From NCBI GenBank assembly GCA_017302715.1, contig JAFLCD010000003.1:83154-147153 (forward strand): DNA of 64,000 bases, written 5' to 3'. Each line of letters starts with the position of its first letter. Position 1 is the first letter of the stretch. Below are positions 13,376-46,396 of this stretch, piece after piece. Position numbers and translations under genes: made by a program. The notes below the pieces were generated by a model. It saw nothing but the letters and a program-made list of their open reading frames with translations, did not search any database and was not told where the DNA came from. This DNA comes from Deltaproteobacteria bacterium (lineage in GTDB: Bacteria; Bdellovibrionota; UBA2394).

Positions 13376-15091
13376 ATGGCTGGAGCACCATCAAATAGAC
13401 TTGGCGAGCTGCTGATTAAAGAAAATTTAATTTCAGCTTCTCAACTTATGAAAGCTCAAGAGGCGTCGCGCTCAAACGGCGGTCGCTTGAGTTTCAATTT
13501 AACAAAATTAGGTTTCATTAAAGAAGCCGATCTTACAAATTTTCTCAGTAAGCAATTTGGAGTTCCCTCGATCGATCTCAGCTCCTTTGAAGTAGATGAC
13601 GAGATCATCGCGTTGATTCCTCAAGACGTCGCAGAAAAACATTTAGTAATCCCTGTTAACAAAGTTGGAAGTAATTTGATCGTTGCGATGAGTGATCCCA
13701 GCAATATTTTTGCTATCGACGATATTAAATTTTTAACCGGATACAATATCGAAGTTGTCGTAGCTTCTGAGCAAGCCATCAAAGAGTCCATCGAAAAATA
13801 TTATCAAAGCGATACGATGAAATTTTCTGAAGTCATGGCCGACTTTGAAGATGATGATATGGAGATTGTCGCTGGTGAGTCGGATCTCGATCTTGCCGAG
13901 CTTGAGAAATCCTCTGAAGATGCTCCTGTAGTTAAACTGTGTAATCTTATTTTAATGGAAGCTATCAAAAAAGGTGCTTCTGATATTCATATCGAGCCTT
14001 ACGAAAAGGAATTGCGTGTTCGCTATCGTGTGGACGGCGTTCTTGTTGAGCAGATGAAGCCACCTGTGAAATTGAGAAATGCAATTAGCTCACGTATTAA
14101 GATTATGTCGTCTCTCGACATTGCTGAAAGACGCCTTCCTCAGGACGGTCGTATTAAACTTAAATACGCTAAAGGCAAAGAAATGGACTTTCGGGTTTCT
14201 GTTTTGCCAACCCTCTTCGGCGAAAAAATTGTTTTACGTCTTTTAGATAAAGGAAACTTGCAACTCGATATGACGAAGCTCGGCTTTGAAGAAGCTGCGC
14301 TTAAAGATTTTAAGAAAGCGATTCATCAACCTTTCGGAATGGTGCTTGTAACGGGTCCAACAGGTTCCGGTAAAACAACGACACTTTATTCTGCACTTTC
14401 AGAGCTCAATCAAATTACAGAAAATATTTCGACTGCAGAAGATCCAGTGGAATTTAACTTGCTTGGTATCAATCAAGTGCAGATGCACGAAAGTATCGGA
14501 CTTAATTTCGCGGCTGCTTTGCGATCTTTTCTTCGACAAGATCCCGACATCATCATGGTGGGGGAAATTCGGGACTTTGAAACGGCAGAAATTTCGATTA
14601 AGGCCGCTCTTACAGGTCACTTGGTTCTTTCGACCTTGCACACGAACGATGCTCCAAGCACTGTCAGTCGACTTTTGAATATGGGTATTGAGCCTTTCTT
14701 AGTTGCTTCTGCTCTCAATGCGATTGTTGCTCAACGTTTGGCTCGAAAAATTTGTACGGAGTGCAAAGAAGAATTGAAAGTTCCTGTTCAGACTCTTCTC
14801 GATATCGGAGTGAATCCAGATATTGCAGCTTCGATGAAGGTTCATCACGGCAAAGGTTGCAGCAATTGCTCGAACACCGGATACAAAGGTCGAGTCGCTC
14901 TTTATGAAGTCATGATCATGAAAGATGAGCTTAAAGAATTTATTTTAAACGGAGCGAGTACGGCTGAACTTAAACGCGAAGCTATTCGCTTAGGAATGCA
15001 AACTCTTCGTATGAGTGCCGTTAATAAAATTCGTGATGGGATAACGACGATCGAAGAAACCGTTCGAACAACGGCAAGCGATAATTCTTAA
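13376..15091 (+). CDS. pilB: type IV pilus assembly ATPase PilB (GspE family)
   Basis: 571 aa. N-terminal GSPII domain, Walker A (GPTGSGKTTT), Asp/His boxes, tetracysteine motif (CTEC...CSNC). Confidence 0.9.
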   Translation: MAGAPSNRLGELLIKENLISASQLMKAQEASRSNGGRLSFNLTKLGFIKEADLTNFLSKQFGVPSIDLSSFEVDDEIIALIPQDVAEKHLVIPVNKVGSNLIVAMSDPSNIFAIDDIKFLTGYNIEVVVASEQAIKESIEKYYQSDTMKFSEVMADFEDDDMEIVAGESDLDLAELEKSSEDAPVVKLCNLILMEAIKKGASDIHIEPYEKELRVRYRVDGVLVEQMKPPVKLRNAISSRIKIMSSLDIAERRLPQDGRIKLKYAKGKEMDFRVSVLPTLFGEKIVLRLLDKGNLQLDMTKLGFEEAALKDFKKAIHQPFGMVLVTGPTGSGKTTTLYSALSELNQITENISTAEDPVEFNLLGINQVQMHESIGLNFAAALRSFLRQDPDIIMVGEIRDFETAEISIKAALTGHLVLSTLHTNDAPSTVSRLLNMGIEPFLVASALNAIVAQRLARKICTECKEELKVPVQTLLDIGVNPDIAASMKVHHGKGCSNCSNTGYKGRVALYEVMIMKDELKEFILNGASTAELKREAIRLGMQTLRMSAVNKIRDGITTIEETVRTTASDNS

Positions 15092-15118
15092 GTTTAATTA
15101 AAGGAAAGTGAGAACACT

Positions 15119-16312
15119 GTGGAAAGAGAAGACGAAAAAGCTATTTCACCAGATATGTTGCCTGATAATTCCTCGCTAACTCTTCAGGTGCTTTTAAAAA
15201 CGATGCTTGAAAAAGGTGCGAGCGATTTGCATATAACTGCTGCAACGCCTCCTGTTCTGCGAGTGGATGGAATTTTGATTCCGTTAAAGTTGCCGGCGTT
15301 GAGTCCGACGGATTGTAAGCGTCTTTGTTACAGTATTTTAACCGACTCTCAAAAATCTCGATTTGAAGAAGATAATGAACTCGATCTTTCGTTCGGTATG
15401 AAAGGTCTTGCTCGATTTCGTTGCAATCTTTTCGTGCAAAGAGGTGTGGTGTCTGGTGCATTTCGACAAATTCCATTTAAAATTTCTACACTTCAAGAGC
15501 TTGGAATGCCTCCTATTGTTGGCGAACTTTGTGAGCGTCCCCGGGGGCTCATTCTTGTAACCGGACCAACAGGTTCTGGTAAATCCACAACTCTTGCCGC
15601 AATGATCGATAAAATTAATCGTGAAACTCATCAACATATTTTAACGATTGAAGATCCAATCGAGTTTTTGCATCCTCACAAAAGTTGCATCGTCAATCAG
15701 CGCGAAGTAAATGCAGATACCGAAAGTTTTACGAAAGCACTCAAATACGTTCTTCGACAAGACCCTGATGTGGTGATGGTGGGAGAACTTCGAGATCTCG
15801 AAACGATTGAAGCGGCACTTGCGATCGCAGAAACCGGTCACTTATGTTTTGCGACTTTGCACACAAACTCAGCTCTTCAAACCATTAATCGGTTAGTGGA
15901 TGTTTTTCCTTCACATCAACAGCCACAAATTCGTGCTCAGCTTTCATTCGTTTTAGAGGGAATTATTTCACAAACTTTAATCGAAAAAGCTTCAGGCGTG
16001 GGACGAGTGATGGCCTATGAAGTTTTAATTCCTACGCCTGCGATTCGAAATTTAATTCGCGAAGATAAAGTTCATCAAATTTATTCGCAAATGCAAATTG
16101 GTCAGGGCAAGCATGGAATGAACACGCTCAACCAGTCTCTTGTTCAACTTTATCAACGTCGCATGATCACGATGGATCAAGCACTCTCTTGCAGTAGTGA
16201 TCCTGAAGAAGTTCGTACGATGATTATGAATCAAGGCGGTGGAGTAACTGCCAATGGAATGCCTGGCGGACAAACAGCTAGAGCAAAAGCAGAAGGTACA
16301 AAGAAAGGATAA
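15119..16312 (+). CDS. pilT: twitching-motility retraction ATPase PilT (with N- and C-terminal extensions)
   Basis: Walker A (GPTGSGKSTT), PilT-type motifs and AIRNLIRE. GTG start after an AAGGAAAG RBS. 397 aa is longer than typical PilT. Confidence 0.85.
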   Translation: MEREDEKAISPDMLPDNSSLTLQVLLKTMLEKGASDLHITAATPPVLRVDGILIPLKLPALSPTDCKRLCYSILTDSQKSRFEEDNELDLSFGMKGLARFRCNLFVQRGVVSGAFRQIPFKISTLQELGMPPIVGELCERPRGLILVTGPTGSGKSTTLAAMIDKINRETHQHILTIEDPIEFLHPHKSCIVNQREVNADTESFTKALKYVLRQDPDVVMVGELRDLETIEAALAIAETGHLCFATLHTNSALQTINRLVDVFPSHQQPQIRAQLSFVLEGIISQTLIEKASGVGRVMAYEVLIPTPAIRNLIREDKVHQIYSQMQIGQGKHGMNTLNQSLVQLYQRRMITMDQALSCSSDPEEVRTMIMNQGGGVTANGMPGGQTARAKAEGTKKG

Positions 16313-16315
16313 TCT

Positions 16316-17536
16316 ATGGCGCTTTATAAATGGGAAGGTGTCGCTCGAAATGGACAAATCAAATCGGGAACTAAGGAAGCACCTACAGAAGCAGCGATGC
16401 TTCAGTTTCTTCGCTCGCAACAGATTCGTCCAAAAAAACTTTCAGCTGTAAAAACGGGTGGCTTAGGTGGCTTCAATTTTGCTTTTGGCAGCGGCGTTTC
16501 ACAGAAAGAGCTTGTCGTTTTCTCTCGTCAGTTCGCGACGATGATTGATGCAGGTCTTCCTCTTGTTCAATGTTTAGAAATTTTGGGAAATCAGGCAGAA
16601 AATCCTGCGTTTAAAAAAGTAATCAAAGGAGTTCAGGTCGACGTTGAAGGCGGTAGCACTTTTGCCGATTCACTCAAAAAATATCCGGATGTCTTTGATT
16701 CTCTCTATGTGAACCTTGTGGCCGCTGGAGAAGTGGGCGGTATTCTCGACGTTATTTTACAAAGACTTTCGGCTTATCTTGAAAAAGCTGCGAAATTAAA
16801 AGGCCAAGTAAAATCGGCGATGGTTTATCCTATTGCGATTGCTGGGGTCGCCGTTTTAGTTATTACCGTTCTTCTTGTTTGGGTTATTCCTATTTTTGAA
16901 AATATGTTTAAAGAATTTGGTGGCGCCGCACTCCCAGCCCCGACTCAAATTGTTATCAATTTAAGTAAATGGACTCAGCATAATTTTATTTTTCTCGTTA
17001 TGTTTGGAGTGGGGATGATCTTTTTGTGGAAGTGGATCAGAAAAAATCCACGTACGCTTGAAATCACAGACGACATTTTCTTAAAGCTTCCAATCTTTGG
17101 TCCGCTCATTCGAAAAGTTGCTGTTGCAAGATTTACGCGAACTCTTGGAACGATGATTTCTTCGGGGGTTCCTATTCTCGAAGCTCTTGATATTACCGCG
17201 CGAGCTGCCGGAAATAAAACTGTTGAGAAAGCAATTTATAGAGCTCGACAAAGTATCTCTGAAGGTAAATCGGTTGCGGAACCTATTGCGCAGAGCAAAG
17301 TATTTCCGCCGATGGTTTGTCAGATGATTAACGTCGGAGAACAAACCGGTGCTCTCGATACGATGCTTGGAAAAATCGCGGACTTTTACGATGAGGAAGT
17401 AGATGCCGCGGTAAAAGGCCTAACGAGTTTGATGGAACCTGCGATGATGGTGATTCTTGGGGGAATCATCGGGGGACTCGTTGTGGCGATGTATCTTCCT
17501 ATCTTCGAATTGGCAGGAAATCTTAAAGCGGGTTGA
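16316..17536 (+). CDS. pilC: type IV pilus inner-membrane platform protein PilC (GspF family)
   Basis: 406 aa with two GspF repeats and 3 TM segments, positioned after pilB/pilT as in canonical loci. Confidence 0.9.
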   Translation: MALYKWEGVARNGQIKSGTKEAPTEAAMLQFLRSQQIRPKKLSAVKTGGLGGFNFAFGSGVSQKELVVFSRQFATMIDAGLPLVQCLEILGNQAENPAFKKVIKGVQVDVEGGSTFADSLKKYPDVFDSLYVNLVAAGEVGGILDVILQRLSAYLEKAAKLKGQVKSAMVYPIAIAGVAVLVITVLLVWVIPIFENMFKEFGGAALPAPTQIVINLSKWTQHNFIFLVMFGVGMIFLWKWIRKNPRTLEITDDIFLKLPIFGPLIRKVAVARFTRTLGTMISSGVPILEALDITARAAGNKTVEKAIYRARQSISEGKSVAEPIAQSKVFPPMVCQMINVGEQTGALDTMLGKIADFYDEEVDAAVKGLTSLMEPAMMVILGGIIGGLVVAMYLPIFELAGNLKAG

Positions 17537-19119
17537 TGATGCGAGAACGAATTAAATGGTTGATGACGTTTCGTGTTGCCTTCGTGCTTGTCATGGGGGC
17601 AACAGGTGCTGCCTTGCAATCGGTCTATCATGATCCGATTGCAGCGGAACTCATTTTTCTTTTGAAAGCTGGAATCGGATTTAGTTTAATTGCGATTCCT
17701 AGCTTTTATTTTTTGAAAAATTCTAGGGCCATTTCAATTCATGCCTGGACTCAAATTATTTGGGATATCGGATACACAAGCGCACTTGTTTACGTCACAG
17801 GTGGACTCTATTCGACCTTCATCATGCTCTATGCAATTCATATCTTACTGACGGCTTCAGTTTTTCTTTCAAGGGGTGCTTTGGTGGCTGGCGCTATTTC
17901 AGCTTTAAGTTTGATAAGCGTTGGCATTTTTCAAGTTGGAAAGCAAATTTATTTAGAACCCAATTTATTTTCGAGATCTCTTTTTAGTGCAAGCGCTCTG
18001 CTTTTGTTTGGAGCCTTCGTAGCATTTTTATTTAAAAATAGAGAGCAACTCGCGAAAAATTTAGAGAAAACTTCCGCCGATCTTAAAGGCTTAAATGATT
18101 TACATTCAGCTATTGTGGACCACGTTCCCTCGGGAATTTTATATTCGGATGCCCATGCCAATGTTCAACTGATGAATCAGGCGGCTCTTCAAATTTTAGA
18201 GCGATCTTATGTGGGAGAAAATCTTAAACGTTCAAATATCGAATTCTTAATTAAAAGCGATGGTCGATTTGAATCAGACTTTAAGAGCGAAAAGTCTCAA
18301 AAAATAATCGGACATCATTTAACCAAATTGCCTAACGGCGGTTGGGTCATTGTATTTCAAGATGTAACTCAGATTCGTGAGCTTGAAACAAAAGTTCAAC
18401 TTCAAGATAAACTTGCAAGCGTTGGGCAGCTAGCCGCAGGGATCGCACATGAAATTCGAAATCCTTTGGCGAGTTTGAGTGGATCGATTCAGCTTTTAAA
18501 ATCTGAAATGTCGATTAAAGAATCTTCTGACAAACTTATGAAAATTGTTTTGCGAGAGACAGATCGCTTAGATCACTTACTCCAAAGCTTTTTAAATTAT
18601 GCGAAGCCTTCGCATCTTCAATTAGAGAGAATTAATGTCTCTGAATTCGTGGATGAAATTCTTAGTCTCATTAAAAATCAGCCTGCGATTCAGTCGCATA
18701 AAATTTCAATTAAAACGAGTATAGATAAAAATTTATTTTGCTTTGTCGATCCTCGACATCTTAAGCAAATTTTTTGGAATCTTATAAAAAACTCAATTGA
18801 AGCGATTCGTGAGAGCGGCGAGATTTTGATTAAGGCGAGTGAGCGAGATCACGATGGTGAAGCGATGATTGTGTTTTCTGTTGAAGATACGGGCGCTGGA
18901 ATTAGCAAAGAAATTTTAGACAAAGTTTTTGATCCGTTCTTTTCTACAAAGGATTCAGGAACAGGACTCGGTTTAGCTTTGGTATATCAGTTGGTGAAAT
19001 CTCATTCAGGTCAAATGGGTGTGGAGAGTGAACCAACTCGCGGAACAAAATTTTGGTTTGCTTTATTGAAAGATGGACCTGCTGAAGAACGTTCTCTCTC
19101 AGCAGCGTCAGGAGGGTAA
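17533..19119 (+). CDS. pilS: sensor histidine kinase PilS-like (polytopic N-terminus, HisKA, HATPase)
   Basis: About six N-terminal TM helices, H-box (AAGIAHEIRNPL), and G1/G2 boxes (EDTGAGIS, GTGLGLAL). ATGA overlap with pilC; sits upstream of the sigma-54 regulator. Confidence 0.75.
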   Translation: MMMRERIKWLMTFRVAFVLVMGATGAALQSVYHDPIAAELIFLLKAGIGFSLIAIPSFYFLKNSRAISIHAWTQIIWDIGYTSALVYVTGGLYSTFIMLYAIHILLTASVFLSRGALVAGAISALSLISVGIFQVGKQIYLEPNLFSRSLFSASALLLFGAFVAFLFKNREQLAKNLEKTSADLKGLNDLHSAIVDHVPSGILYSDAHANVQLMNQAALQILERSYVGENLKRSNIEFLIKSDGRFESDFKSEKSQKIIGHHLTKLPNGGWVIVFQDVTQIRELETKVQLQDKLASVGQLAAGIAHEIRNPLASLSGSIQLLKSEMSIKESSDKLMKIVLRETDRLDHLLQSFLNYAKPSHLQLERINVSEFVDEILSLIKNQPAIQSHKISIKTSIDKNLFCFVDPRHLKQIFWNLIKNSIEAIRESGEILIKASERDHDGEAMIVFSVEDTGAGISKEILDKVFDPFFSTKDSGTGLGLALVYQLVKSHSGQMGVESEPTRGTKFWFALLKDGPAEERSLSAASGG

Positions 19120-19122
19120 CAC

Positions 19123-20616
19123 ATGAGTGCAAGAATACTTGTCGTCGACGATGAATTAAGCGTACGAGAATTTTTCGAAATTCTTTTAGCTAAAGAGGGT
19201 TATGAAGTCGTTACGGCTTTAGATGGAAGTGATGCCCTTCGGCTTTTGAGAGAACAAAGTTTCGATCTCATCATCAGTGATCTTCAAATGAAGGGCGGAG
19301 ATGGGATGACGTTACTTCGCGAATCTAAAAAATTTCAGAACGAAGTTCCTGTGATTATGATTACCGCTTTTGCAACTACAGATTCAGCAGTTGAAGCAAT
19401 GAAAGCTGGAGCTTTTGATTACGTCAGCAAGCCTTTTAAGATTGAAGAAATTAAAGTGGTGATTCAACGAGCTCTCAATACAAAAACATTGGTCGTTGAA
19501 AATCGAAATTTAAAATCTGAATTGCGCGATAAATATGATTTTTCTAATTTGCTTGGTGAATCTGAGCCAATGAAAAATGTTTACGATCTCATTCGCAAAA
19601 CTTCTCCTACTCGTACCAATGTTTTGATTTGGGGAGAGTCAGGAACGGGTAAGGAGCTTGTGGCCAAAGCCATTCATTTTAATTCTCCTCGAAAAGAAAA
19701 GCCTTTTATGACGGTGAACTGTGGCGCCATTCCTCAAACGTTGATTGAGAGCGAACTTTTTGGTCATGAGAAAGGCTCTTTTACAGGAGCGAGTGCTTTG
19801 AAGGCTGGACTTTTTGAAGCAGCACATAAGGGCACTATCTTCTTGGATGAAATCGGAGAGCTTCCTTTGCCGATGCAAGTAAAATTACTTCGCGTGATCC
19901 AGGAGAGATGTTTTCATCGTGTGGGCGGAACAGAGAGTATTGAAGTGGACGTTCGTATTATCGCGGCCACTAATAAAAACCTCGAAGAAGAAGTCAAAAA
20001 AGGAAACTTTAGAGAAGATTTATTTTATCGATTGAATGTCATTCAGATTCAACTTCCGCCACTTCGGTTGCGAAAAAAAGATATTCCACTTTTGTCGGAG
20101 CATTTTCTTAGAAAATTTGCCAAAGAGACCGGAAAGGATGTTCGTAAAATCAGTCCAAAGGCCATGGAACTTTTAATGGCCTATGATTATTACGGAAACG
20201 TTCGTGAACTCGAAAATATTATCGAGCGCTCTGTTGCTCTTGAACCAGGAAATGAAGTTCAATCTGAATCTTTGCCCGGCAATGTCATTCATCCCGAGCA
20301 AAATCGCGAAAAATTTTCACTCAAAGAAGCCGAACTTCATTTTGATCAGGGTGGAGTAGCTTTAGACAATTTAGTCGATGCATTTGAAAAGGATTTACTT
20401 TTAAAAGCTCTCGATAAATCTCATGGCTCACGTTCTCGCGCAGCTAAACTTTTAGGCATTTCGAGTCGGTCGATGCGATACCGCCTCAAAAAGCACCTTA
20501 TAGGCGGCTACGACGACGAGGACTCCCTACTAGACGTTTCTGTGGATGGGAGCGAAAATGAAGGTGTACTTCGAACAATGAAGCTGGAAGACTTTTCTAA
20601 GGAAGGAAAAGGCTAA
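19123..20616 (+). CDS. pilR: sigma-54-dependent response regulator PilR (NtrC family)
   Basis: Receiver domain with the phospho-acceptor Asp region, AAA+ sigma54-activation domain (GESGTGKELVAKAIH) carrying a GAFTGA-like loop (GSFTGA), and a C-terminal HTH. Confidence 0.85.
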   Translation: MSARILVVDDELSVREFFEILLAKEGYEVVTALDGSDALRLLREQSFDLIISDLQMKGGDGMTLLRESKKFQNEVPVIMITAFATTDSAVEAMKAGAFDYVSKPFKIEEIKVVIQRALNTKTLVVENRNLKSELRDKYDFSNLLGESEPMKNVYDLIRKTSPTRTNVLIWGESGTGKELVAKAIHFNSPRKEKPFMTVNCGAIPQTLIESELFGHEKGSFTGASALKAGLFEAAHKGTIFLDEIGELPLPMQVKLLRVIQERCFHRVGGTESIEVDVRIIAATNKNLEEEVKKGNFREDLFYRLNVIQIQLPPLRLRKKDIPLLSEHFLRKFAKETGKDVRKISPKAMELLMAYDYYGNVRELENIIERSVALEPGNEVQSESLPGNVIHPEQNREKFSLKEAELHFDQGGVALDNLVDAFEKDLLLKALDKSHGSRSRAAKLLGISSRSMRYRLKKHLIGGYDDEDSLLDVSVDGSENEGVLRTMKLEDFSKEGKG

Positions 20617-21204
20617 TTGAAAAAGTTTCACTCTCTTTATAGCAAAAGTATTATTGGATTTACGTTGATCGAGTTAATGATCACGGTCGCGATCATTGCA
20701 GTTTTATCGGCCATCGCGATTCCCGTTTATACGAGTTATATCCGTCGCTCGTATTTGTCAGAAGCGACAACTTCGATTTCTGCGATCAAATCAGCCGAAG
20801 AAAGTTTTTTCACGATTAACAATTGTTATATCGAGGCGCTTGCTCATCCGGCGACTGTTCCCGCTGGTGTATCGGTTTCTTGGGATTCGTCGACCTTTTC
20901 TACACCCAATTCTTGGGCTCGAAACGCATTGGGAGTTCGACCTGATAAAAATGTTCGATTTCAATATCAAGTTTACGCTTCTAATTCCCTATCGGGCGGT
21001 GGATGCGGCAGTTCTCCAACGGCAGTTCCCGCAACTTTAGGTTGCGTGGCAAATGCCCAAACCGTTTTTGCTAACGCAGCTCTTTTTCCAAGTAATTGGT
21101 ATATTGTCGTCGCTCGAGGTGATTTAAATGGTGACAATACTTCTTCTACCATCATTTCTGGGATAGATGACTCTCAAATTGTCATGTGTAATGAGCTTCA
21201 ATAA
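20617..21204 (+). CDS. pilA: type IV pilin (prepilin, N-methylation site G|FTLIELM)
   Basis: TTG start immediately after the pilR stop, preceded by an AAGGAAGGAAAAGG RBS. Leader ...SIIG then [23 protein letters not shown]-terminal Cys pair. Confidence 0.8.
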   Translation: MKKFHSLYSKSIIGFTLIELMITVAIIAVLSAIAIPVYTSYIRRSYLSEATTSISAIKSAEESFFTINNCYIEALAHPATVPAGVSVSWDSSTFSTPNSWARNALGVRPDKNVRFQYQVYASNSLSGGGCGSSPTAVPATLGCVANAQTVFANAALFPSNWYIVVARGDLNGDNTSSTIISGIDDSQIVMCNELQ

Positions 21205-35436: not shown

Positions 35437-35754
35437 ATGAGTGCGCAGCTTGAATGTGTCGGTGTTGATATTTTTGTTTGGTCGAATGGCGGAATTCCAA
35501 AAGTTCCTGCTGAAATAGCAGGTCTCAAAATGGATTGTATTTCTCAGCGTGGACTAAAATGTTCTCCGGGACCTACGCCCGAAGGTTTGATCGTCGATTG
35601 GTATGTGTGTCGCTACACAAGTAAATCGGATGTAGGTGACGATGCGATTCAAAAATTGTTGAGCGAAATTTCTAAGCAGATGAAGTGGGAAAAAGTTCAA
35701 AAACTTTTTCGCCAAAACAATATCGATTTATTTTCAAAGGTGTACGAAGCATGA
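35437..35754 (+). CDS. hypothetical small protein
   Basis: 105 aa ORF between the GT2 gene and the dehydrogenase; no motifs. May be non-coding. Confidence 0.3.
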   Translation: MSAQLECVGVDIFVWSNGGIPKVPAEIAGLKMDCISQRGLKCSPGPTPEGLIVDWYVCRYTSKSDVGDDAIQKLLSEISKQMKWEKVQKLFRQNNIDLFSKVYEA

Positions 35755-36752
35755 GCATCAAAGTCGCTCTTCTTAAAGGTGATGGCATCGGTCCTGAAAT
35801 TTGTCAGGCGATGATGGAAATTTTTACTCAGCTAAAGGCCCCCATCGAATGGATCGATGTTCCCTGCGGTGAAGATACATTTGAAAAAATGGGTTCATCG
35901 ATGCCGATCTCATCGATCGATGCGATTAAAGAACTCAAGGTTGCCATTAAAGGCCCGACGGCCACTCCCATTGGAGGAGGAAGAAAATCAGCGAACGTAG
36001 TTTTAAGAAAATCTCTCGATCTTTATTCGAATGTGCGACCTGCTCAAAGTATTCCTGGAGTGGAAACTCCGTTTAAAAATGTAGATTTGATTATTATTCG
36101 CGAGAATACCGAAGATGTTTATGCAGCGATTGAACACACGTTGCATCCAGATGTTTGGCAGTGTTTAAAGATTATCACTCGACCGGGAAGCGAGCGCATC
36201 TGTCGTTATGCTTTTGAAATGGCGAGAAACTTAAAACGAAAAAAAGTCACCTGCGTGCACAAAGCTAACATCATGAAACTCACTGACGGAAAATTTTTAG
36301 AAATTTTTCGAGAGGTTGCCAAAGATTTTCCTGAAATCGAAGCGAATGATGTGATTGTCGATAATGTGTGCATGCAATTGGTTTCAAAGCCTCAACAATA
36401 CGATGTGATGGTAACTCAGAATTTATATGGCGATATTATTTCGGATCTTTGTGCGGGTCTGATTGGAGGCCTCGGAGTCGCCGGAGGTGCCAACATCGGA
36501 AAGAAGGCCGCTGTTTTTGAAGCGGTACACGGAACGGCTCCAGACATCGCCGGAAAAAATATGGCGAATCCAACGGCTTTATTGTTATCGAGCGCGATGA
36601 TGCTCGAGCATTTAAAATTATTTGAGGAAGCCAAGCGTTTGCGAAATTCTTTGTTCAAAGTGATTCAAGAAGGCAAGTCCACGACGAAAGATCTTAAAGG
36701 TTCAGGCACAACCAAAGAATTTACCGAAGCGATTTGCAGAAATTTTACTTAA
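35751..36752 (+). CDS. isocitrate/isopropylmalate dehydrogenase family protein, probably NAD-dependent isocitrate dehydrogenase
   Basis: Start at the ATG giving [17 protein letters not shown]. The [19 protein letters not shown] motif is typical of IDH/IMDH. Confidence 0.75.
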
Positions 36753-39327: not shown

Positions 39328-40350
39328 TCATCCTAGTCGCAGCGGTGGAGAAGTGGAAAGCAAAGTCTGATGACGCAGCGTGTAAAAATGATCATGCCAT
39401 TGTCTGTGATGGTTTGTGCAGAGTAAGACGAGATTCGCTGGTGAATTCGTACCTCCCTGACTGACCGGAACTCGATGATGAATATCTATATAATGAGAGC
39501 TTTCGCATTTAAGTCCGTTAGCTTTCCTAAACTGACACTGGCTTTTGTCCCTTTGAAAGACAAAGACTCTCGTAACAGGCGAAATCGGAATTCTAACCTT
39601 CAATTTATTTAAGTTCTTCACAAGTGGTCCCGGGACCACTTGTGAAAGCTCTTGTGAGAGCGATTCGGGCTCATTTTTATTCGGGAGAATCTCTGCACTC
39701 TTGGCGCTAATTGATTTTAATTCCTTCTCCCGAGTCGTTTTTGAGACGTCCTTTAAATTTTTCATCAGCGGATCATTTTTTTTCAAAAATTCATCCACAG
39801 TTTTTTCTAACGTCTGTTCAAGATTAAAATTAGTCCGTGATTTATTCGCACACAAAGTTTGAGCTCTCTTTATTTTCTTAAGCAATGAATCCGAAATTTC
39901 AATTCGAAATAGATTTCGATTTTCTGAGACCGGCCGAATAAATTCTCTTTGAATACTTTCTGGAAACTTCTTAGCTACTTCTTTTTCAAGTTCTACTCTT
40001 GTCATCGCAGTCGCCTTTGCAATCCATTCGCTTTGATTTTCTTTGGTTAAAATTGGAACAATTCGCCGCGCCTTTGAGACCGAAATATTTCCAGAAATAA
40101 TTTCTTTCTTGAGCTCAGGGATCTCTTTCACTTTTCGAGATATTTTTGAAAAAGTATAGGCATTCGCTTCAGAGAATTGCAGGGCCTCAACACAATAAGA
40201 AAATAAACTCGAATACCCTAAAGTTAAATAAATTTTCTCTTCGCTTACTTTTTCCAGGGTTTCTATAAGTTCGCCCTCGGTTTTTCGATAACATTGCGAG
40301 AGTGAAATAGCTTTTTCATGAATCTTATTTTGATCAGAATTTAATTTCAT
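39328..40350 (-). CDS. HNH endonuclease domain protein (N-terminal DUF222-like region + C-terminal HNH)
   Basis: C-terminal CQFR.ANGLKCESSHYIDIHHRVPVSQGGTNSPANLVLLCTNHHRQWH (HNH with zinc-ligand cysteines). Start set to MKLNSDQ, which has an AAGGAG RBS 7 nt upstream on the minus strand. Confidence 0.65.
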   Translation of the reverse strand: MKLNSDQNKIHEKAISLSQCYRKTEGELIETLEKVSEEKIYLTLGYSSLFSYCVEALQFSEANAYTFSKISRKVKEIPELKKEIISGNISVSKARRIVPILTKENQSEWIAKATAMTRVELEKEVAKKFPESIQREFIRPVSENRNLFRIEISDSLLKKIKRAQTLCANKSRTNFNLEQTLEKTVDEFLKKNDPLMKNLKDVSKTTREKELKSISAKSAEILPNKNEPESLSQELSQVVPGPLVKNLNKLKVRIPISPVTRVFVFQRDKSQCQFRKANGLKCESSHYIDIHHRVPVSQGGTNSPANLVLLCTNHHRQWHDHFYTLRHQTLLSTSPPLRLG

Positions 40351-40473
40351 TTTCCGCTCCTTACTTTCTCTATTTTTGCTCTCGCGAATTAAAATTTTTT
40401 TCAAAATTTTCTTTCTGGCGCATGGATAAAGCAGCGGTGAGATTTAGCAAGGGAAAAATATTTAATTGAGCGA

Positions 40474-40521
40474 CCAAAAAACAAGAAAAAGATCTTCAGG
40501 AATCTTTTTCTTGTTTTTTGG
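40474..40521 (+). promoter_or_regulatory. perfect 20-bp inverted repeat hairpin followed by T-run in prfC 5' leader (attenuator/terminator-like)
   Basis: CCAAAAAACAAGAAAAAGAT-cttcaggaa-TCTTTTTCTTGTTTTTTGG, then TTTTGG. It lies between the divergent HNH and prfC starts. Confidence 0.5.
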
Positions 40522-40549
40522 TTTTGGAGCCGATAATTCATAAAAAATT

Positions 40550-42151
40550 GTGAGTTCGAATTATCAAACACGCAGAACCTTCTGCATCATCTCTCACCCC
40601 GACGCCGGTAAGACCACGCTCACTGAAAAGCTGCTCCTCTTTGGAGGTGCCATTCAGATTGCTGGAACCGTAAAGGCGAGAAAAGCGGCACGCTATGCCA
40701 CAAGTGACTGGATGGAGATTGAGAAGCAGCGGGGAATTTCGGTAACTTCGAGTGTTCTTCAATTTGAATACGGCGGATGTCATTTAAATTTGCTCGATAC
40801 TCCAGGCCATAAAGATTTTAGTGAAGACACTTATCGCGTGATCACAGCGGTCGATTCGGCGCTTATGGTGGTCGATGGAGCGAAGGGTATCGAAGAGCAA
40901 ACGAAAAAACTCATGGAAATTTGCTCGCAGCGAAAAATTCCTGTCATCACTTTTATCAATAAACTCGATCGCGAATGCAAGTCTCCGATTGAGTTACTCG
41001 ATGAAATTGAATCTGTTTTAAAAATCAAAACTTCTCCGATCACATGGCCGCTTCGGTCAGGAAAAAGTTTTCAGGGTGTTTATGATTTTTATAAAAAAGT
41101 TTTTGCTAAATTTGACCCGGATAAAGAGCGACCTGAAGAAATTTCTGTAGAGGGTCTAAAAGATAAACGCTGGCAGGATTGGCTCGCTCCCGATTTGTTC
41201 GAAGAGTTTCAAGAACAGACCGAACTCGTTCAAGGAGTTTACGATAAGTTTGATGCTCAGAAATTTTTGAATGGTCAAATCACTCCCGTATTTTTTGGAT
41301 CAGCGATTAACAATTTCGGTGTCGAGATGCTGCTTCGAAAATTTTGCGAAGTTGCGCCGGCTCCAAGTGAGCGACTCGCACTCGAGAGAATTGTTGAACC
41401 AGGTGAAAAAGATTTTTCGGGATTCATTTTTAAGATTCAAGCCAATATGGATGCTCGTCACCGAGATCGTATCGCGTTTTTACGCGTCTGCTCCGGAAAT
41501 TTTGAAAAATCCATGGAAGCTTATCATGTGCGCCTTAAGAAAAAATTTCGCGTAGGTAATACCTTTCAGTTTATGGCTTCTCAGCGCACTCAGGTTGAAG
41601 AGGCGACGGCGGGAGATATTCTCGGTCTCTATGATACTGGCGATTTTAAAATAGGGGATACAATTACGCAGAAAGAAAATCTTTCTTATTTAGGTATTCC
41701 AAGTTTTGCGCCTGAGCTTTTTCGAAAAGTAATTTTAACCAGCCCTCTTAAATCGAAGCAACTTCATCGTGGACTTCAACAGCTTTGTGAAGAGGGTGCG
41801 TCTCAAGTTTTTTATCCGGTAAATACAAATGACATTGTTGTCGGAGTGGTCGGCCAACTTCAATTTGAAGTCATTCAATTTCGTTTAGAGAAAGAATACG
41901 GAGCAGGGGCTAAATTTGAAACTTGTGCTTACAAACTTGCGCGCTGGGTTTTGCCTAAACCTGAACATAAAGATAAATTTCAATCGACACTCGATGCGCT
42001 CGCTCGATCATACGACACTCTTCTTTCTAAAGACGCTGAAGAGCGCTGGGCCATTTTGTGTTCATCTGAATATGCACTCAACAAAGCTCAAGAGAGATTT
42101 CCTGAAGTTACTTTTGCGAGAACGTCGGAGCTGGTAAGCCGCGAGGGCTAA
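40550..42151 (+). CDS. prfC: peptide chain release factor 3
   Basis: 533 aa translational GTPase (G1 HPDAGKTT, DTPGH, NKLD) with RF3-specific domains. GTG start. Confidence 0.9.
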   Translation: MSSNYQTRRTFCIISHPDAGKTTLTEKLLLFGGAIQIAGTVKARKAARYATSDWMEIEKQRGISVTSSVLQFEYGGCHLNLLDTPGHKDFSEDTYRVITAVDSALMVVDGAKGIEEQTKKLMEICSQRKIPVITFINKLDRECKSPIELLDEIESVLKIKTSPITWPLRSGKSFQGVYDFYKKVFAKFDPDKERPEEISVEGLKDKRWQDWLAPDLFEEFQEQTELVQGVYDKFDAQKFLNGQITPVFFGSAINNFGVEMLLRKFCEVAPAPSERLALERIVEPGEKDFSGFIFKIQANMDARHRDRIAFLRVCSGNFEKSMEAYHVRLKKKFRVGNTFQFMASQRTQVEEATAGDILGLYDTGDFKIGDTITQKENLSYLGIPSFAPELFRKVILTSPLKSKQLHRGLQQLCEEGASQVFYPVNTNDIVVGVVGQLQFEVIQFRLEKEYGAGAKFETCAYKLARWVLPKPEHKDKFQSTLDALARSYDTLLSKDAEERWAILCSSEYALNKAQERFPEVTFARTSELVSREG

Positions 42152-43047
42152 TCAGCCCCAGTCATTAAATTTTCTTTGTAAGATTTATTTAGTTTTTGTA
42201 GATGAATGAGAACTTCTTTAAGTTCTGCATATTTACTTTCGCTGAATTTTTTTTCAAATACATTAAACAGTTCTGATTGAGCGTATTGTCCTAATAAATT
42301 CAAGACGGCTTCATTTTTATTTTTCACGGCAAGTGCCATTGTCTGTTCGCCCTGAGCCGAAATGCTTTCATAGGCTGCCGCTAAATTAACAGCACAAGAT
42401 TCTTTTAGTTTTTGATTTTCAGTGGTTGCATAGACTCGCTCAATAATTTCTCGGCTCGAAATATTTTCATATGCGGTAGCTTTTAAAAAATCGGCAACAG
42501 GCATTTCAGCATAAAAATTATCTATTTTTACTTCGGTAATGCGAAACTGAGCTTCGGCTGTCGAAATATCTAGACCTTGTTTTCCAAGAGCGAGGAGCCC
42601 TTGCTTCAGTGCCCACGGAGTTGGGATATAATGACCTGACAAATTTGAAATTAATTTTATTTTACCATTCTCGATTGTGATTCTGCCTGCAAGTGCGACG
42701 GCTTCTCCTCGTAGCAAACTGGAATGACGTAAATTTTGATTAGAAATAGAATCAGGTAAAATAATAACGGAGCCGCTAGAATCCATTACAAAAATAGAAG
42801 TTTGATTAAGTAATTCTCCTTGGCTGTTTAATGCCAACCCATTTTTAAATTGAACTCTCCCTTCTTCCGTTTGCTTTTCGTTTAAATAGTAAACATTTTT
42901 TCTATCTGACTCGGAATAGTGGGAGAGCATAGCAGTGGTTCTGAGACAGATATCTGGAACTCGACGAGCTTCAACTTCAAATGGACTGATAGCTCCAAAT
43001 GATAAGAATAAAATGCCAATGGCAAATTTAGCCCACGACTTAACCAC
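42148..43047 (-). CDS. hypothetical secreted protein
   Basis: 299 aa with a signal peptide (MVKSWAKFAIGILFLSFGAIS). No motifs. Confidence 0.45.
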   Translation of the reverse strand: MVKSWAKFAIGILFLSFGAISPFEVEARRVPDICLRTTAMLSHYSESDRKNVYYLNEKQTEEGRVQFKNGLALNSQGELLNQTSIFVMDSSGSVIILPDSISNQNLRHSSLLRGEAVALAGRITIENGKIKLISNLSGHYIPTPWALKQGLLALGKQGLDISTAEAQFRITEVKIDNFYAEMPVADFLKATAYENISSREIIERVYATTENQKLKESCAVNLAAAYESISAQGEQTMALAVKNKNEAVLNLLGQYAQSELFNVFEKKFSESKYAELKEVLIHLQKLNKSYKENLMTGAD

Positions 43048-43148: not shown

Positions 43149-43223
43149 GGGGTCGGGTTAAAAAGGTGCCAGGTCGGCACTGAAGATTTAATAGCTGACC
43201 TGGCACCTTTTTAACCCGACCCC
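43149..43223. repeat. 75-nt palindromic repeat element, copy 1 (27-bp perfect arms, 21-nt loop)
   Basis: GGGGTCGGGTTAAAAAGGTGCCAGGTC...GACCTGGCACCTTTTTAACCCGACCCC. A second, imperfect copy lies at 45601..45688. It is GC-rich in an AT-rich background. Confidence 0.75.
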
Positions 43224-43393
43224 TAAAAATTATTGCGGCGCCCAAAGCTGATCGTCATATTATTATATAGTTATACAGATTCTTGCAGATCAACGGGGCC
43301 AAGCAATTCGCACCAGAGATTTTCAAGAGTTTGAAACCGAAAATTTTTAAAAAGGTTCAAGTGATTGAGCTTTTAAAAGATGAAAGGAAAATT

Positions 43394-45595
43394 ATGTCTG
43401 CACGCCAATCGGCTATTGCTACTGCTATTTCACGTCAAATTAGAAAAATCGAAAGACCAAAAGATTTAACCGGCAAGATTCTTGCGGTGAACGAATATTT
43501 TGGTGAGGCCACATTTGGTCTCGATCAAATCAAAGAGCGTCTCGCCAAAGATTCTTATGAATCTTTGATGGCCATGGTTCATAAGGGCGCTCGTCTTCCT
43601 AAAAATGTTTCGGACGAAATCGCCAACGTCATCAAAGATTGGGCGATCAGCCAAGGTGTCACTCACTTTTGTCACTGGTTTCAACCGATGACCGGTTTGA
43701 CGGCCGAAAAACACGATGCGTTTATTTCAACTCGAACTTCTGAAACCGGCCAAACGATGGTGCTCGAAAAATTTTCTGGCGCGGCACTCATTCAGTCAGA
43801 ACCGGATGCGAGTTCTTTTCCCAGTGGTGGAATGAGATCCACTTTCGAAGCTCGCGGATATACGGCATGGGATCCAACGAGTCCACTTTTTGTGATGGAA
43901 ACGACGAACGGAAAAACGCTCTGCATTCCGTCTGCGTTTTTAAGTTATCACGGTCATGCGCTCGATACAAAAACCCCACTGCTTCGATCGACCGAAGCGC
44001 TTTCAAAACACGCTGTAAAATTTTTGAAGATGCTTGGCGATGTGGATATCAACGGAGTGACTACAACTCTCGGTGTTGAACAAGAATATTTTTTAGTCGA
44101 TCGTGCGATGTTTTCGTTGCGACCTGATTTAATAATGACGGGCCGAACTTTGCTTGGTCGAGCTTCGACTCGTGGTCAGCAATTCGAAGATCATTATTTT
44201 GGTTCCATTCCTGCGCGCGTTTTAGCGTTCATGCATGAAATCGAACAAGAGCTCTATAAACTTGGCGTACCGATCAAGACTCGTCACAACGAAGTTGCAC
44301 CTGCGCAATTTGAACTCGCTCCGATTTTTGAAGATTCAAATTTAGCGGTCGACCACAACTCGTTGACGATGGATGTGCTTTGTCGCGTGGCTCTTCGACA
44401 TGATCTCGTTTGTTTGCTTCACGAGAAACCTTTTGCAGGAATCAACGGAAGCGGAAAACATAACAACTGGAGTCTCTCCACTCAAAGAGGCGAAAATCTT
44501 TTGGAGCCCGGAAAAACTCCTCACCAAAATTTGCGATTTTTAGCCGTGCTAGCGACGGTGCTTAAAGGAGTTTATGAACATTCCGATGCGCTTCGAGTGG
44601 GCATTGCCGCTGCAGGAAATGATCATCGTTTAGGGGCGAACGAAGCTCCTCCCGCCATCATCAGTGCGTTTCTTGGCGACAGCTTAAGCAAAATTTTAGA
44701 TCGAATCGAAAGTGGCGCTATCGTTGAAGATTCTGCTGAAGAAGCCATCATCAATCTCGGCGTTTCAAAACTTCCTGTGGTCGCTCGCGATAATACTGAT
44801 CGAAATCGAACTTCGCCGTTTGCTTTCACCGGAAATAAATTTGAATTTCGCGCTGTTGGATCTTCAGCGAATTGCGCTGTTCCCACTTCGATTTTAAATA
44901 CGGCAGTTGCAGATGCATTCGCGCAGATGTCAGAGCGGCTTGAGAAAAAACTTTCGCAGACCAAATCAAGAGATGAGGCCGTGCTTGCTTTGATTAAAGA
45001 AGTGATCAAAGAAACGAAAGCGATTCGTTTTGAGGGAAATAATTATTCAGACGAATGGAAAGCCGAAGCAAAAAAGCGCGGGCTACCAAATCTGACGACC
45101 ACTCCAGAAGCTTTAAGTGTTTTCGAAAATCCAAAGGCCATGAGTTTTTTAACTAAATACAATGTGCTTTCGGAAGATGAAATCAAAGCTCGCCACAATA
45201 TTATGCTTGAGCGTTACATCAAGCAGATCGAGATGGAAGCGGCGACCGTGATGGAGCTTACGCATACTCATGTGCTTCCTGCGGTTGAGGCTGAAGTCGA
45301 GCGATTGGGAAATATGGCGAAGACGATAAAAGAAGCCGGTGAATCGATTTCGCTCGATCGATTAGAAAATATAAAATCGATTTATGAAAATCTTTTAAAA
45401 GCTGAAAGCTCTCTTCAAAAAGAATTTGAATCAGCTGTTCAAATTCATGACGAATCTAAAAAAGCGAGCGCGCTTAGTACAAAAGTTTTACCGCTGATGC
45501 AAAATTTGCGAGATATCGCCGACGACGCTGAAGGCCGCATCTCAGACTCTGCTTGGAGCTTACCTAAATATCGAGAAATTTTGTTCGTGAAGTAA
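43394..45595 (+). CDS. glnN: glutamine synthetase type III
   Basis: About 733 aa from the MSARQSA start. GSIII-like N-terminus (HFCHWFQPMTG) and a GS catalytic core; length matches GlnN-type enzymes. Confidence 0.8.
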   Translation: MSARQSAIATAISRQIRKIERPKDLTGKILAVNEYFGEATFGLDQIKERLAKDSYESLMAMVHKGARLPKNVSDEIANVIKDWAISQGVTHFCHWFQPMTGLTAEKHDAFISTRTSETGQTMVLEKFSGAALIQSEPDASSFPSGGMRSTFEARGYTAWDPTSPLFVMETTNGKTLCIPSAFLSYHGHALDTKTPLLRSTEALSKHAVKFLKMLGDVDINGVTTTLGVEQEYFLVDRAMFSLRPDLIMTGRTLLGRASTRGQQFEDHYFGSIPARVLAFMHEIEQELYKLGVPIKTRHNEVAPAQFELAPIFEDSNLAVDHNSLTMDVLCRVALRHDLVCLLHEKPFAGINGSGKHNNWSLSTQRGENLLEPGKTPHQNLRFLAVLATVLKGVYEHSDALRVGIAAAGNDHRLGANEAPPAIISAFLGDSLSKILDRIESGAIVEDSAEEAIINLGVSKLPVVARDNTDRNRTSPFAFTGNKFEFRAVGSSANCAVPTSILNTAVADAFAQMSERLEKKLSQTKSRDEAVLALIKEVIKETKAIRFEGNNYSDEWKAEAKKRGLPNLTTTPEALSVFENPKAMSFLTKYNVLSEDEIKARHNIMLERYIKQIEMEAATVMELTHTHVLPAVEAEVERLGNMAKTIKEAGESISLDRLENIKSIYENLLKAESSLQKEFESAVQIHDESKKASALSTKVLPLMQNLRDIADDAEGRISDSAWSLPKYREILFVK

Positions 45596-45600
45596 AATTG

Positions 45601-45688
45601 GGGGTCGGGTTAAAAAGGTGCCAGGTCAGCCAATTTGTTTTTCGGTGCTGACCTGGCACCTTTTCTGGTTCCTTTTCCGGCCGACCCC
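45601..45688. repeat. palindromic repeat element, copy 2 (imperfect; right arm carries ~14-nt insertion)
   Basis: GGGGTCGGGTTAAAAAGGTGCCAGGTCAGC...GCTGACCTGGCACCTTTT-ctggttccttttcc-GGCCGACCCC. It fills the gap between the convergent glnN stop and the YiiX-like gene stop, so it probably acts as a terminator. Confidence 0.7.
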
Positions 45689-46396
45689 TTATTCAAAATA
45701 TTTTTCTTTGCCTTGCAAATAAATCCCCAGTGGAGAAATCCCGAGCTTGCCCTCAGGAGTTTTCATTCCGATTTTTTTAAAATAATCGTCCCATGCTTTT
45801 CTGGCGATACTGCCAGGTTTTCCAAAAGTCATCGGGGTTAACGCAAAAAATCCACTGCCTACGCTCGAGCCACTCACGCCAGAAAAAAAAGATTCGTAGA
45901 CCAAACTCGAGCAATAATATTTTCCTCCACCCATTAAAAATTCTGAATCATAAGGCTTTCCCAATAATCTTCTCGCTCGTTGAACTGCCGCTAAAACCTG
46001 TGGGCGAAATTCTCGTTTAAACCGGCCGATATAAAATCCATCTTTTTCATTTTCGCCTCCCTTCACTCGTTCTAAAACTTCTGCCAAAGGTGTACGAATC
46101 ACTCCGCCATTTGGCCAAGCCTCAAACACAAAAGTGCCGTGCTTTCCATTGGACTCTAAAATTCCAACATGACTTAAATCTGGGCCTGTTACTTTGAATT
46201 GGCGTTTTGTCGCGTCGGCGATCGCTGAGCAAAGCCCGCGGCATTTCATATCGAGAAAAATCAGATCGCCCGTGTGGATATTGGCGATCTTTACCGCATT
46301 TGCACTGGCTCTAGAGCCCGCCGGATAAACAACCGGATAAAGAATGAGAGCTAAGAAAACTCTAACCAGAAGGAGTTGGACATACCTGCGATTCAT
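45689..46396 (-). CDS. secreted YiiX/YaeF-like permuted papain-fold protein (peptidase C92 family candidate)
   Basis: Signal peptide, then TGDLIFLDMKCRGLCSAIADATKRQFKVTGPDLSHVGIL, which resembles the GDLIF...SH(V/A)GI core of the DUF830/YiiX family. Start set at MNRRYVQ. Confidence 0.5.
   Translation of the reverse strand: MNRRYVQLLLVRVFLALILYPVVYPAGSRASANAVKIANIHTGDLIFLDMKCRGLCSAIADATKRQFKVTGPDLSHVGILESNGKHGTFVFEAWPNGGVIRTPLAEVLERVKGGENEKDGFYIGRFKREFRPQVLAAVQRARRLLGKPYDSEFLMGGGKYYCSSLVYESFFSGVSGSSVGSGFFALTPMTFGKPGSIARKAWDDYFKKIGMKTPEGKLGISPLGIYLQGKEKYFE

Follow-up and report, generated by a model that had tools for sequence, protein, structure and literature searches.

What are the two GC-rich palindromes that stand on either side of glnN, the type III glutamine synthetase gene of an uncultured, Bdellovibrio-like member of the Bdellovibrionota: copies of a dispersed repeat, a terminator duplicated on the spot, or regulatory structures belonging to glnN itself? 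The question was examined in a 64,000-nt stretch of DNA (Deltaproteobacteria bacterium, assembly GCA_017302715.1, contig JAFLCD010000003.1, positions 83,154 to 147,153), hereafter called the window. On balance, we lean slightly towards the first answer, namely that the element represents a new family of a known kind, an ordinary bacterial intergenic repeat of which two copies are seen in 64 kb, and which behaves like the doublets of repetitive extragenic palindromes (REPs) that form hairpins (REPINs) or like miniature inverted-repeat transposable elements (MITEs).

Structure of the two palindromes

A first-pass annotation of the window had reported that two GC-rich palindromes flank glnN, and both were confirmed by repeat analysis and folding. 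The gene, the two copies and their parts are as follows.

43149..43223, no strand assigned: copy 1, a non-coding palindrome of ~75 nt
43160..43212, no strand assigned: inner terminator-like module of copy 1, with the same reading on either strand
43394..45595, + strand: glnN, type III glutamine synthetase, 733 aa (Pfam GSIII_N, Gln-synt_C and Gln-synt_C-ter)
45601..45688, no strand assigned: copy 2, 88 nt, inverted relative to copy 1
45613..45664, no strand assigned: inner module of copy 2, consisting of AAAAGGTGCCAGGTCAGC, a 16-nt loop and GCTGACCTGGCACCTTTT
45665..45680, + strand: copy-2-specific segment, a 12-nt tandem duplicate, CTGGTTCCTTTT, of the adjoining CTGGCACCTTTT, then CCGG in place of TAAC

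The arms of copy 1 (43149-43175 and 43197-43223) are perfect 27-mers, GGGGTCGGGTTAAAAAGGTGCCAGGTC and its complement, as annotated, but the pairing goes further. Three inner pairs, one of them G-T, and an A-T pair outside the arms extend the stem to 31 bp and leave a loop of 15 nt, not 21 nt. The left arm comprises an outer module, GGGGTCGGGTT (43149-43159), an A5 run (43160-43164) and an inner module, GGTGCCAGGTC (43165-43175), followed by GGC, and the right side after the 15-nt loop reads GACCTGGCACC (43197-43207), T5 (43208-43212) and AACCCGACCCC (43213-43223). The folding free energy (dG) of copy 1 was -64.1 kcal/mol as RNA (z -13.4) and -39.3 kcal/mol as DNA. Its inner module is composed of an A5 shoulder, a GC-rich stem of 14 bp (17 bp with GGC/GCT, including one G-T pair) and a T5 shoulder, and showed a DNA dG of -21.9 (43158-43214).

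Copy 2 forms a three-way structure, in which an outer stem of 8-9 bp (GGGGTCGG/CCGACCCC) encloses an inner stem of 18 bp with 100% complementarity (45613-45630/45647-45664) and a small side hairpin that results from the duplication. Its dG was -53.9 kcal/mol as RNA (z -7.1) and -31.2 kcal/mol as DNA. The tails of the inner stem are A4-5 with TTTTCTGGTT on the + strand, which is U-rich, and TTTTTAA on the - strand, which gives U5. Copy 2 does start at the sixth base past the glnN stop codon (45593-45595), with 5 nt between, and does share the arm of copy 1, as had been described. A foreign insertion of some 14 nt in its 3' arm was rejected, since the extra letters prove to be the 12-nt tandem duplicate of CTGGCACCTTTT (45665-45676) and the 4-nt change from TAAC to CCGG. 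The sole open reading frame (ORF) across the element in the two copies is a mechanical ORF of 40 aa.

The copies are mutually inverted: the global alignment scored 102.5 with copy 1 reverse-complemented versus 85 as written, and the left arm of copy 2 matched copy 1 at 29 of 30 nt as written and at all 30 after reverse-complementing. While the arms are identical between the copies (30/30), the loops are ca. 55% identical and can be aligned in reverse complement only. Identical arms beside diverged loops point to a constraint on the arm sequence, through recognition by a factor or through gene conversion, unlike the pattern of a simple recent duplication.

Within the 64 kb, the 27-mer arm has three matches (one in each arm of copy 1 and one in the left arm of copy 2) versus none in 100 shuffles, and the 13-nt core is confined to the two copies. 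As hairpins, the copies are the strongest pair in the window. In a window-wide inverted-repeat search the copies ranked first and third, and the only other long perfect palindromes were those at 40473-40522 and 39617-39646. The remark in the annotation that such hairpins stand out in an AT-rich genome agrees with this ranking, except that the window is only moderately AT-rich (40% GC).

Position of the copies relative to glnN and its neighbours

Three further features are needed to describe the surroundings of the copies.

42148..43047, - strand: divergent upstream gene, whose 299-aa product is predicted to be secreted and has a signal-peptide-like segment at its N-terminus
43347..43361, + strand: arm-like 15-mer TTAAAAAGGTTCAAG, of which 13 of 15 nt agree with the arm TTAAAAAGGTGCCAG; the glnN ATG follows 33 nt downstream
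45689..46396, - strand: convergent gene for a YiiX/C92 permuted papain-like amidase (Pfam Peptidase_C92/YiiX), hereafter the C92 gene

Copy 1 had been assigned to the 5' region of glnN. It does lie 171 nt upstream of the glnN ATG, in the space between two divergent genes and 101 nt from the start of the 299-aa gene, and it is probably upstream of the glnN promoter. Copy 2 abuts the stop codon of the C92 gene (45689-45691) without a gap. The glnN and C92 proteins both keep their native C-termini, with the same ends as their orthologues. The start of the C92 gene was taken from a 235-aa call in L078, a contig from a strain of the same species that is described below; the mechanical ORF extends to 46507.

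Convergent gene pairs in the window overlap or abut (-32 to +6 nt) and have no hairpin, with two exceptions. One is a 57-nt spacer at 33401/33459, which is without a long hairpin, and the other is the 93-nt spacer between glnN and the C92 gene, which is filled by the 88 nt of copy 2. Upstream of glnN, the spacer of 346 nt is the longest in the window; when the 75 nt of copy 1 are subtracted, 271 nt are left versus 273 nt at the corresponding place in the relative L076. Both palindromes are located at the edges where conserved glnN meets variable neighbouring content. The fit of the spacers, the absence of hairpins at the other convergent pairs and the position at the edges of synteny together argue for insertion of the elements rather than evolution in situ.

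The genes between which these insertions lie differ in their conservation. GlnN shows 100% identity with MBN8554743.1, which is encoded on a 269-kb contig of a metagenome-assembled genome (MAG) labelled Deltaproteobacteria bacterium. The nearest named homologues of GlnN are from Bacteriovoracaceae and Bdellovibrionota. The slot between prfC and glnN is occupied by other genes in every relative examined. The 299-aa protein found there in the window is an ORFan whose sole match in 5.8 billion proteins was the source MAG's own record, and it has no Pfam or NCBIfam family. The start call of its gene is sound because the ORF opens with the signal-peptide-like segment. This gene shares 4 nt with prfC, no terminator separates the two, and copy 1 is the first strong + strand hairpin past prfC. 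The arm-like 15-mer TTAAAAAGGTTCAAG is present in L078 too, and this weak likeness may be a relic or chance.

Comparison with relatives and with a second strain

The first-pass annotation had pointed to the flanks of glnN in related strains as informative, and these were compared at five loci from four genomes (L044, L045/L046, L076 and L077), which show 76-83% GlnN identity and a GC content of 47-49%. The relatives share the layout prfC - variable gene(s) - glnN ... C92 - infA. At none of the five loci was a palindrome found on either side of glnN, and the core word was absent from the up to 22 kb available. Because of this absence, the hairpins are regarded as lineage-specific additions and not as a conserved leader or terminator of glnN. 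Upstream of glnN, ~50 nt next to the ribosome-binding site could be aligned with the relatives, and the rest was too diverged for exact insertion points. The proposal that copy 1 is a conserved 5' leader of glnN was not borne out, given its absence from relatives beyond the species, its distance from the ATG and the lack of an Rfam match.

The second member of the GlnN 90% cluster, the 5.2-kb contig L078 (Logan assembly ERR1598041), for the most part matches the window at 98-100% identity. Since L078 begins inside the right arm of copy 1 (CCTGGCACCTTTTTAACCCGACCCC), copy 1 exists in this strain as well; that stretch is identical, and the 170 nt from there to glnN contain three differences. The assembly probably broke at the palindrome. 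At the site of copy 2, by comparison, the two strains are polymorphic. L078 has a 37-nt spacer, TTGGGCGTCGGGCACCTTCGTGGCCCGACCCC, in which the outer arms survive together with CACCTT from the end of the inner arm; the inner module and the 12-nt duplication are missing from this mini-hairpin, which still folds with a DNA dG of -11.2 kcal/mol. The simplest derivation of the 37-nt form would be a 47-nt central deletion of the full element between GG microhomologies. A deletion is simpler than the reverse because an insertion would have to recreate the copy 1 arm exactly.

The divergence between L078 and the window peaks at this site, with 82-92% identity over ~600 nt centred on copy 2 (window ~45400-46000, L078 2200-2750). 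The last 34 codons of glnN differ at nine positions, eight of which are synonymous. The first 160 codons of the C92 gene are identical and the last 76 differ at 26 positions, the changes being in frame. Further small patches of purely synonymous differences occur in glnN. These patterns indicate that the divergent tract, which spans the 3' end of glnN, the hairpin and the 3' end of the C92 gene, is an imported recombined allele and not an assembly error. They also indicate that the element at site 2 is older than the split of the alleles, with the 88-nt and 37-nt forms segregating within the species. The element was acquired within this lineage, being present in the same-species strain and absent from genus-level relatives, and evolves by internal deletion, module duplication and recombination while its arms stay identical and its loops drift.

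Predicted role in transcription termination

On both strands, both inner modules consist of a GC-rich stem-loop followed by a U-run (an A-run, a 14-18 bp stem and a T-run). Judged from the sequence, the inner module is built like a bidirectional intrinsic terminator. For copy 2, the position fits as well, in agreement with the earlier proposal that it is a predicted bidirectional terminator between glnN and the YiiX-like gene. During transcription, the inner hairpin and the U-run would emerge before the 3' outer arm, and termination could occur from either side with no need for the outer stem. Copy 2 would terminate the convergent glnN and C92 mRNAs alike and stabilise their 3' ends. Copy 1 would stop transcription that reads through from prfC, as well as antisense transcription, ahead of the glnN promoter, which would make glnN a transcriptionally insulated unit. 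We infer, in addition, that a hairpin 5 nt past a stop codon might affect terminating ribosomes. Analogous hairpins with the same stem start, AAAAGGTGCCAGGTCG, were found 2-7 nt past stop codons on six contigs of one metagenome, three of them between convergent genes.

Comparison with known repeat systems

REPINs are REP doublets that form hairpins and are mobilised by RAYT/TnpA_REP (Bertels & Rainey, PMC3337134, PMC3116915). They are hairpins of ~89 bp made of two inverted REPs, each a short imperfect palindrome, and have conserved arms, a non-conserved foldable spacer and A/T shoulders; their central excision leads to shorter palindromes (PMC3337134). The element is likewise an extragenic, near-perfect hairpin of ~75-89 nt in which the arms are conserved and the spacer is not, and its shoulders are A/T runs, suggesting co-option for termination. 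The mini allele of L078 resembles a central excision that left a shorter palindrome, and long persistence through vertical inheritance is a further likeness. Unlike in a REPIN, a single arm is not palindromic (dG 0 to -0.6 kcal/mol, no better than shuffled).

In canonical REPs, a GT[AG]G guide tetranucleotide precedes the foot of the hairpin by 0-2 nt on the 5' side; the hairpin is 21-65 nt long, its basal stem measures 7-20 nt and it has a small loop or a bulged extension; REPs can terminate transcription, stabilise mRNA and affect translation (PMC6006769). Canonical REPs also go with a genomic tnpA_REP gene (Y1 HUH transposase) that has the repeats on its flanks, a REPtron, and no such gene is among the 54 ORFs of the window. 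As an extragenic palindrome at a gene 3' end, with copy 2 at most 5 nt from one stop codon and abutting another, the element is similar to a REP. It differs in that there is no GTAG or GTGG at its feet, the flanks reading TTCTAA before GGGGTC and AAAAA before GGTGCC on both strands, in its size (75 and 88 nt, with a stem of 28-31 bp and a loop of 15-21 nt) and in the bipartite module grammar of its arms. On the criteria tested, the sequence of the element fails to place it among canonical REPs or REPINs. What stands of the earlier suggestion of a REP/MITE-like repeat is that the element behaves as a rapidly evolving insertion, with its absence from relatives, its polymorphism, its identical arms with diverged loops and its filling of a spacer that is elsewhere close to zero.

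Bacterial MITEs, e.g. Correia/NEMIS, ERIC, RUP and the Tn3-derived TIMEs, are non-coding, have terminal inverted repeats and can carry terminator activity. The element shares with them its perfect 27-bp terminal inverted repeats, its non-coding nature and its location at synteny breakpoints, as well as presence/absence and structural polymorphism at orthologous sites (absent from L044, L045, L046, L076 and L077; 88 or 37 nt within the species). It differs from them in that a target-site duplication is unconvincing, no parent insertion sequence with matching ends was found in the window, and the element is essentially one hairpin with almost no internal sequence. Inverted pairs of DNA uptake sequences in Neisseria and Pasteurellaceae double as terminators, and the element resembles these and other bidirectional terminators in having an 11-12-mer word as an inverted pair, a variable loop, A/T-run shoulders and a placement between convergent genes. 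In contrast to uptake sequences, the core word of the element never occurs singly or inside genes in the window.

Several other identities were considered and rejected. The readings as a Tn3-type inverted repeat and as a DNA uptake sequence were rejected on sequence grammar. Integron attC sites were judged by a core pair of the form 5' RYYYAAC...GTTRRRY 3' and an imperfect, bulged stem; the sequence here, 5' GTTAAAA...TTTTAAC 3', has the wrong core order and a 6/7 fit per site, and its stem is perfect without extrahelical bases. A tyrosine-recombinase core site was discarded since the arm modules are direct and not inverted repeats. In Rfam, only sub-threshold matches to miRNA precursors, i.e. 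generic long hairpins, were obtained for the element; the glutamine riboswitch was not matched, and the sole match across the window was a tRNA. A sigma-54 promoter reading of CTGGCAC was rejected because no GC element is present at the -12 spacing in either copy. Sigma-54 itself is in use in this organism: a type IV pilus cluster (13376-21204) encodes PilB-like and PilT-like ATPases, PilC, a PilS/PilR-type histidine kinase and response regulator, the latter sigma-54-dependent, and then a prepilin-type protein. The TGGCAC of the hairpin does not belong to a sigma-54 promoter.

Recurrence of the core in other lineages

The inner-hairpin pattern was scanned against one genome per species, and an AA/TT-shouldered version against metagenomes, with 596 Gb searched. 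The former gave 43 loci in ~22 assemblies and the latter 28 metagenomic loci. Core-bearing multi-copy families were found in Acidobacteriota, Betaproteobacteria, Bdellovibrionota-like low-GC organisms, Chlamydiales, Omnitrophota and others.

Family A, from one marine-type sample (36-41% GC), has AAAAGGTGCCAGGTCGAACTT...AAGTTCGACCTGGCACCTTTT hairpins, which stand 2-7 nt past stop codons, three of the six between convergent genes; a 731-aa ORF next to one of them, in L049, is not GlnN. Family B comprises 53-nt hairpins from four metagenome samples (41-56% GC; L050, L051, L057, L062-L066, L068, L071, L072 and L074), with an invariant GGTGCCAGGTCCT foot and a strongly co-varying interior. Eleven pairs showed double changes, none of 500 shuffles reached the score, and controls with slid partners scored far lower. 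The same GGTGCCAGGTCCT foot occurs in a Bdellovibrionales MAG (L016, 5188-5291), where it is followed by a tandem array of 27-nt units ending in GACCTGGCACC. Family C (~70% GC) shows GGGGTCAGGTCTTGCAA-GGTGCCAGGTCTTGCA in stacked modules. Acidobacteriota elements of ~106 nt are nested within GGGGGACGGGTCTGTTTTCCACAG ends. The Acidobacteriota MAG MFD09779 contains at least 10 copies of a nested palindrome of 92-107 nt (L004, L006, L010, L015, L017, L028, L034 and L043), in which GGGGGAC-GGGTCTGTTTTCCACAG is followed by a segment that co-varies and by GGTGCCAGGTCTC, and this order is mirrored beyond a loop. Many of these copies are flanked by TA...TA, which suggests a putative TA-duplicating MITE.

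Two further occurrences of the core word were recorded. In a Brevinema MAG (L005, 5612-5920), it ends non-palindromic repeat units, which are followed by T-runs, and in a Chlamydiales MAG (L024, 1-260), it centres a multi-layer nested palindrome of 189 nt with alternating GGGGCCGTGTCTG and GGTGCCRGGTCTC modules.

Of 32 other lineages, two had the outer GGGGTC module at an unchanged offset (-16/-17), where 0.06 were expected (P ~0.002, in a post hoc test). An all-against-all BLAST of the ORFs that flank core-bearing repeats revealed no shared neighbour protein. In viral contigs, the bipartite arm and the shouldered inner hairpin had no match and the bare core had one unrelated match, and literature on the 11-mer consisted of unrelated primer sequences only. 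It is tempting, though doubtful, to see in these loci a candidate cross-phylum hairpin class with a constrained foot, GGTGCCAGGTC, often a GGGGTC-type module 16-17 nt upstream, and a variable pairing interior. The shared 11-bp stem could be a product of chance and ascertainment, given 596 Gb and abundant hairpins. If the class were real, a shared foot without the GT[AG]G guide of RAYTs would mean that a trans-acting factor has gone unrecognised or that a mobilisation system spreads horizontally, and such a factor or system would read the foot on folded single-stranded DNA or RNA.

Weighing of the explanations

If the element is a mobile repeat, it could have spread by hairpin transposition as single-stranded DNA or by a DDE-type MITE mechanism; otherwise, only local duplication and gene conversion may have been at work. 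Several observations weigh against the repeat-family interpretation. Genomes with REPs, REPINs or MITEs have many scattered copies of them. The 64 kb hold two copies only, both flanking glnN, and the chance of such adjacency is estimated at ~4-5% if the copies were placed randomly among ~40-50 junctions, which suggests local copying or a functional link to glnN. Among the 54 ORFs of the window, there is no transposase, RAYT or Y1_Tnp domain. A composite arm-peptide query against 5.8 billion proteins revealed no ORF calls crossing further copies, which is a weak negative. The flanks of copy 1 read TAA on either side (or CTAA when shifted by one base), and those of copy 2 are unmatched. Finally, copy 1 is not at a gene 3' end, and the U-run is paired within the extra outer stem when the element is fully folded; both points also distinguish the element from an ordinary bidirectional terminator.

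Alternatively, a native terminator hairpin could have been copied once across glnN by duplication, template switching or gene conversion, without mobility or a dispersed family, and kept for insulation. We consider this clearly less probable than a repeat family. The presence of just two adjacent copies, the window without a transposase, the lack of a clear target-site duplication and the empty arm-peptide search are all in keeping with a local pair. Gene conversion between nearby inverted copies could explain the identical arms, and the sister strain L078 still has a foldable hairpin at site 2 despite the loss of the inner module. However, the diverged loops beside the identical arms are unlike a simple recent duplication, the same two modules recur at the same offset in bipartite arms of unrelated lineages, multi-copy families on the same core are known elsewhere, and the other convergent gene pairs here do without a hairpin.

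We consider it improbable that the pair forms a cis-regulatory RNA of glnN, in which copy 1 would be a nitrogen-responsive leader or attenuator and copy 2 its 3' partner or terminator. The location of both copies next to glnN, with the low chance adjacency estimated above, would suit this explanation. On the glnN-sense strand, moreover, the single arm difference of copy 1 keeps its pairing as G-U, and a weak sigma-70-like site at 42986-43014 could put copy 1 inside a long leader. Nevertheless, promoter-like sites are at chance level (9 found versus 7.2 expected), no relative outside the species has copy 1 in front of glnN, and no Rfam family, the glutamine riboswitch included, was matched. The same element is also found 3' of glnN, and a near-perfect palindrome has no asymmetry like that of a ligand pocket.

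That the copies are DNA-level sites, i.e. cruciform targets or site-specific recombinase sites inverting or mobilising a glnN cassette, is very hard to credit even though inverted copies bracket a 2.4-kb segment, coincide with the edges of conserved glnN synteny and include one at the centre of the recombined tract, since all relatives have glnN at the same place and in the same direction with respect to prfC and its closest homologues are the syntenic relatives, as expected of vertical inheritance, no recombinase or integrase is present in the 64 kb, the attC core order is not found and the arm modules are direct repeats.

Other observations in the window

A 358-aa ORF (39328-40404, - strand) between the DsbD-171aa genes and prfC has a C-terminal HNH nuclease domain and weak matches to type IV methyl-directed restriction enzymes; only the HNH part matches IscB. 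Since L044, L045 and L046 have nothing at this place, the ORF is a lineage-specific insertion. Of the two other long palindromes in the window, the one at 39617-39646, a perfect 30-bp palindrome (TTCACAAGTGGTCCCGGGACCACTTGTGAA), is inside this ORF. The other (40473-40522; ACCAAAAAACAAGAAAAAGAT...) is AT-rich, with a 21-bp stem and an 8-nt loop. Located 27 nt ahead of the prfC start, in the gap that separates prfC from the divergent HNH gene, it is absent in relatives. The 8-mer ATCTTCAG occurs both in its loop and in the reverse-complemented loop of copy 1, which may be chance.

A 105-aa ORF (35437-35754, + strand) matching the C-terminal domain of bacterial isocitrate dehydrogenase overlaps the start of the main Iso_dh ORF (35685-36752, + strand), which comes next, by 70 nt. 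A frameshift or an error of assembly may account for this overlap, or the genes may be arranged in an unusual way.

Implications

The finding is not a new regulatory RNA of nitrogen metabolism. It concerns a glnN gene bracketed by two strong bidirectional hairpins in a hairpin-poor and very compact chromosome, and would be a case of a repeat co-opted for predicted insulation. If the recurrence of GGTGCCAGGTC goes beyond chance, it would point to a widespread, undescribed hairpin-repeat system outside REP/RAYT. Within the species, the 88-nt element and the 37-nt remnant in one recombined tract may serve as a natural experiment on the decay and spread of long palindromes.

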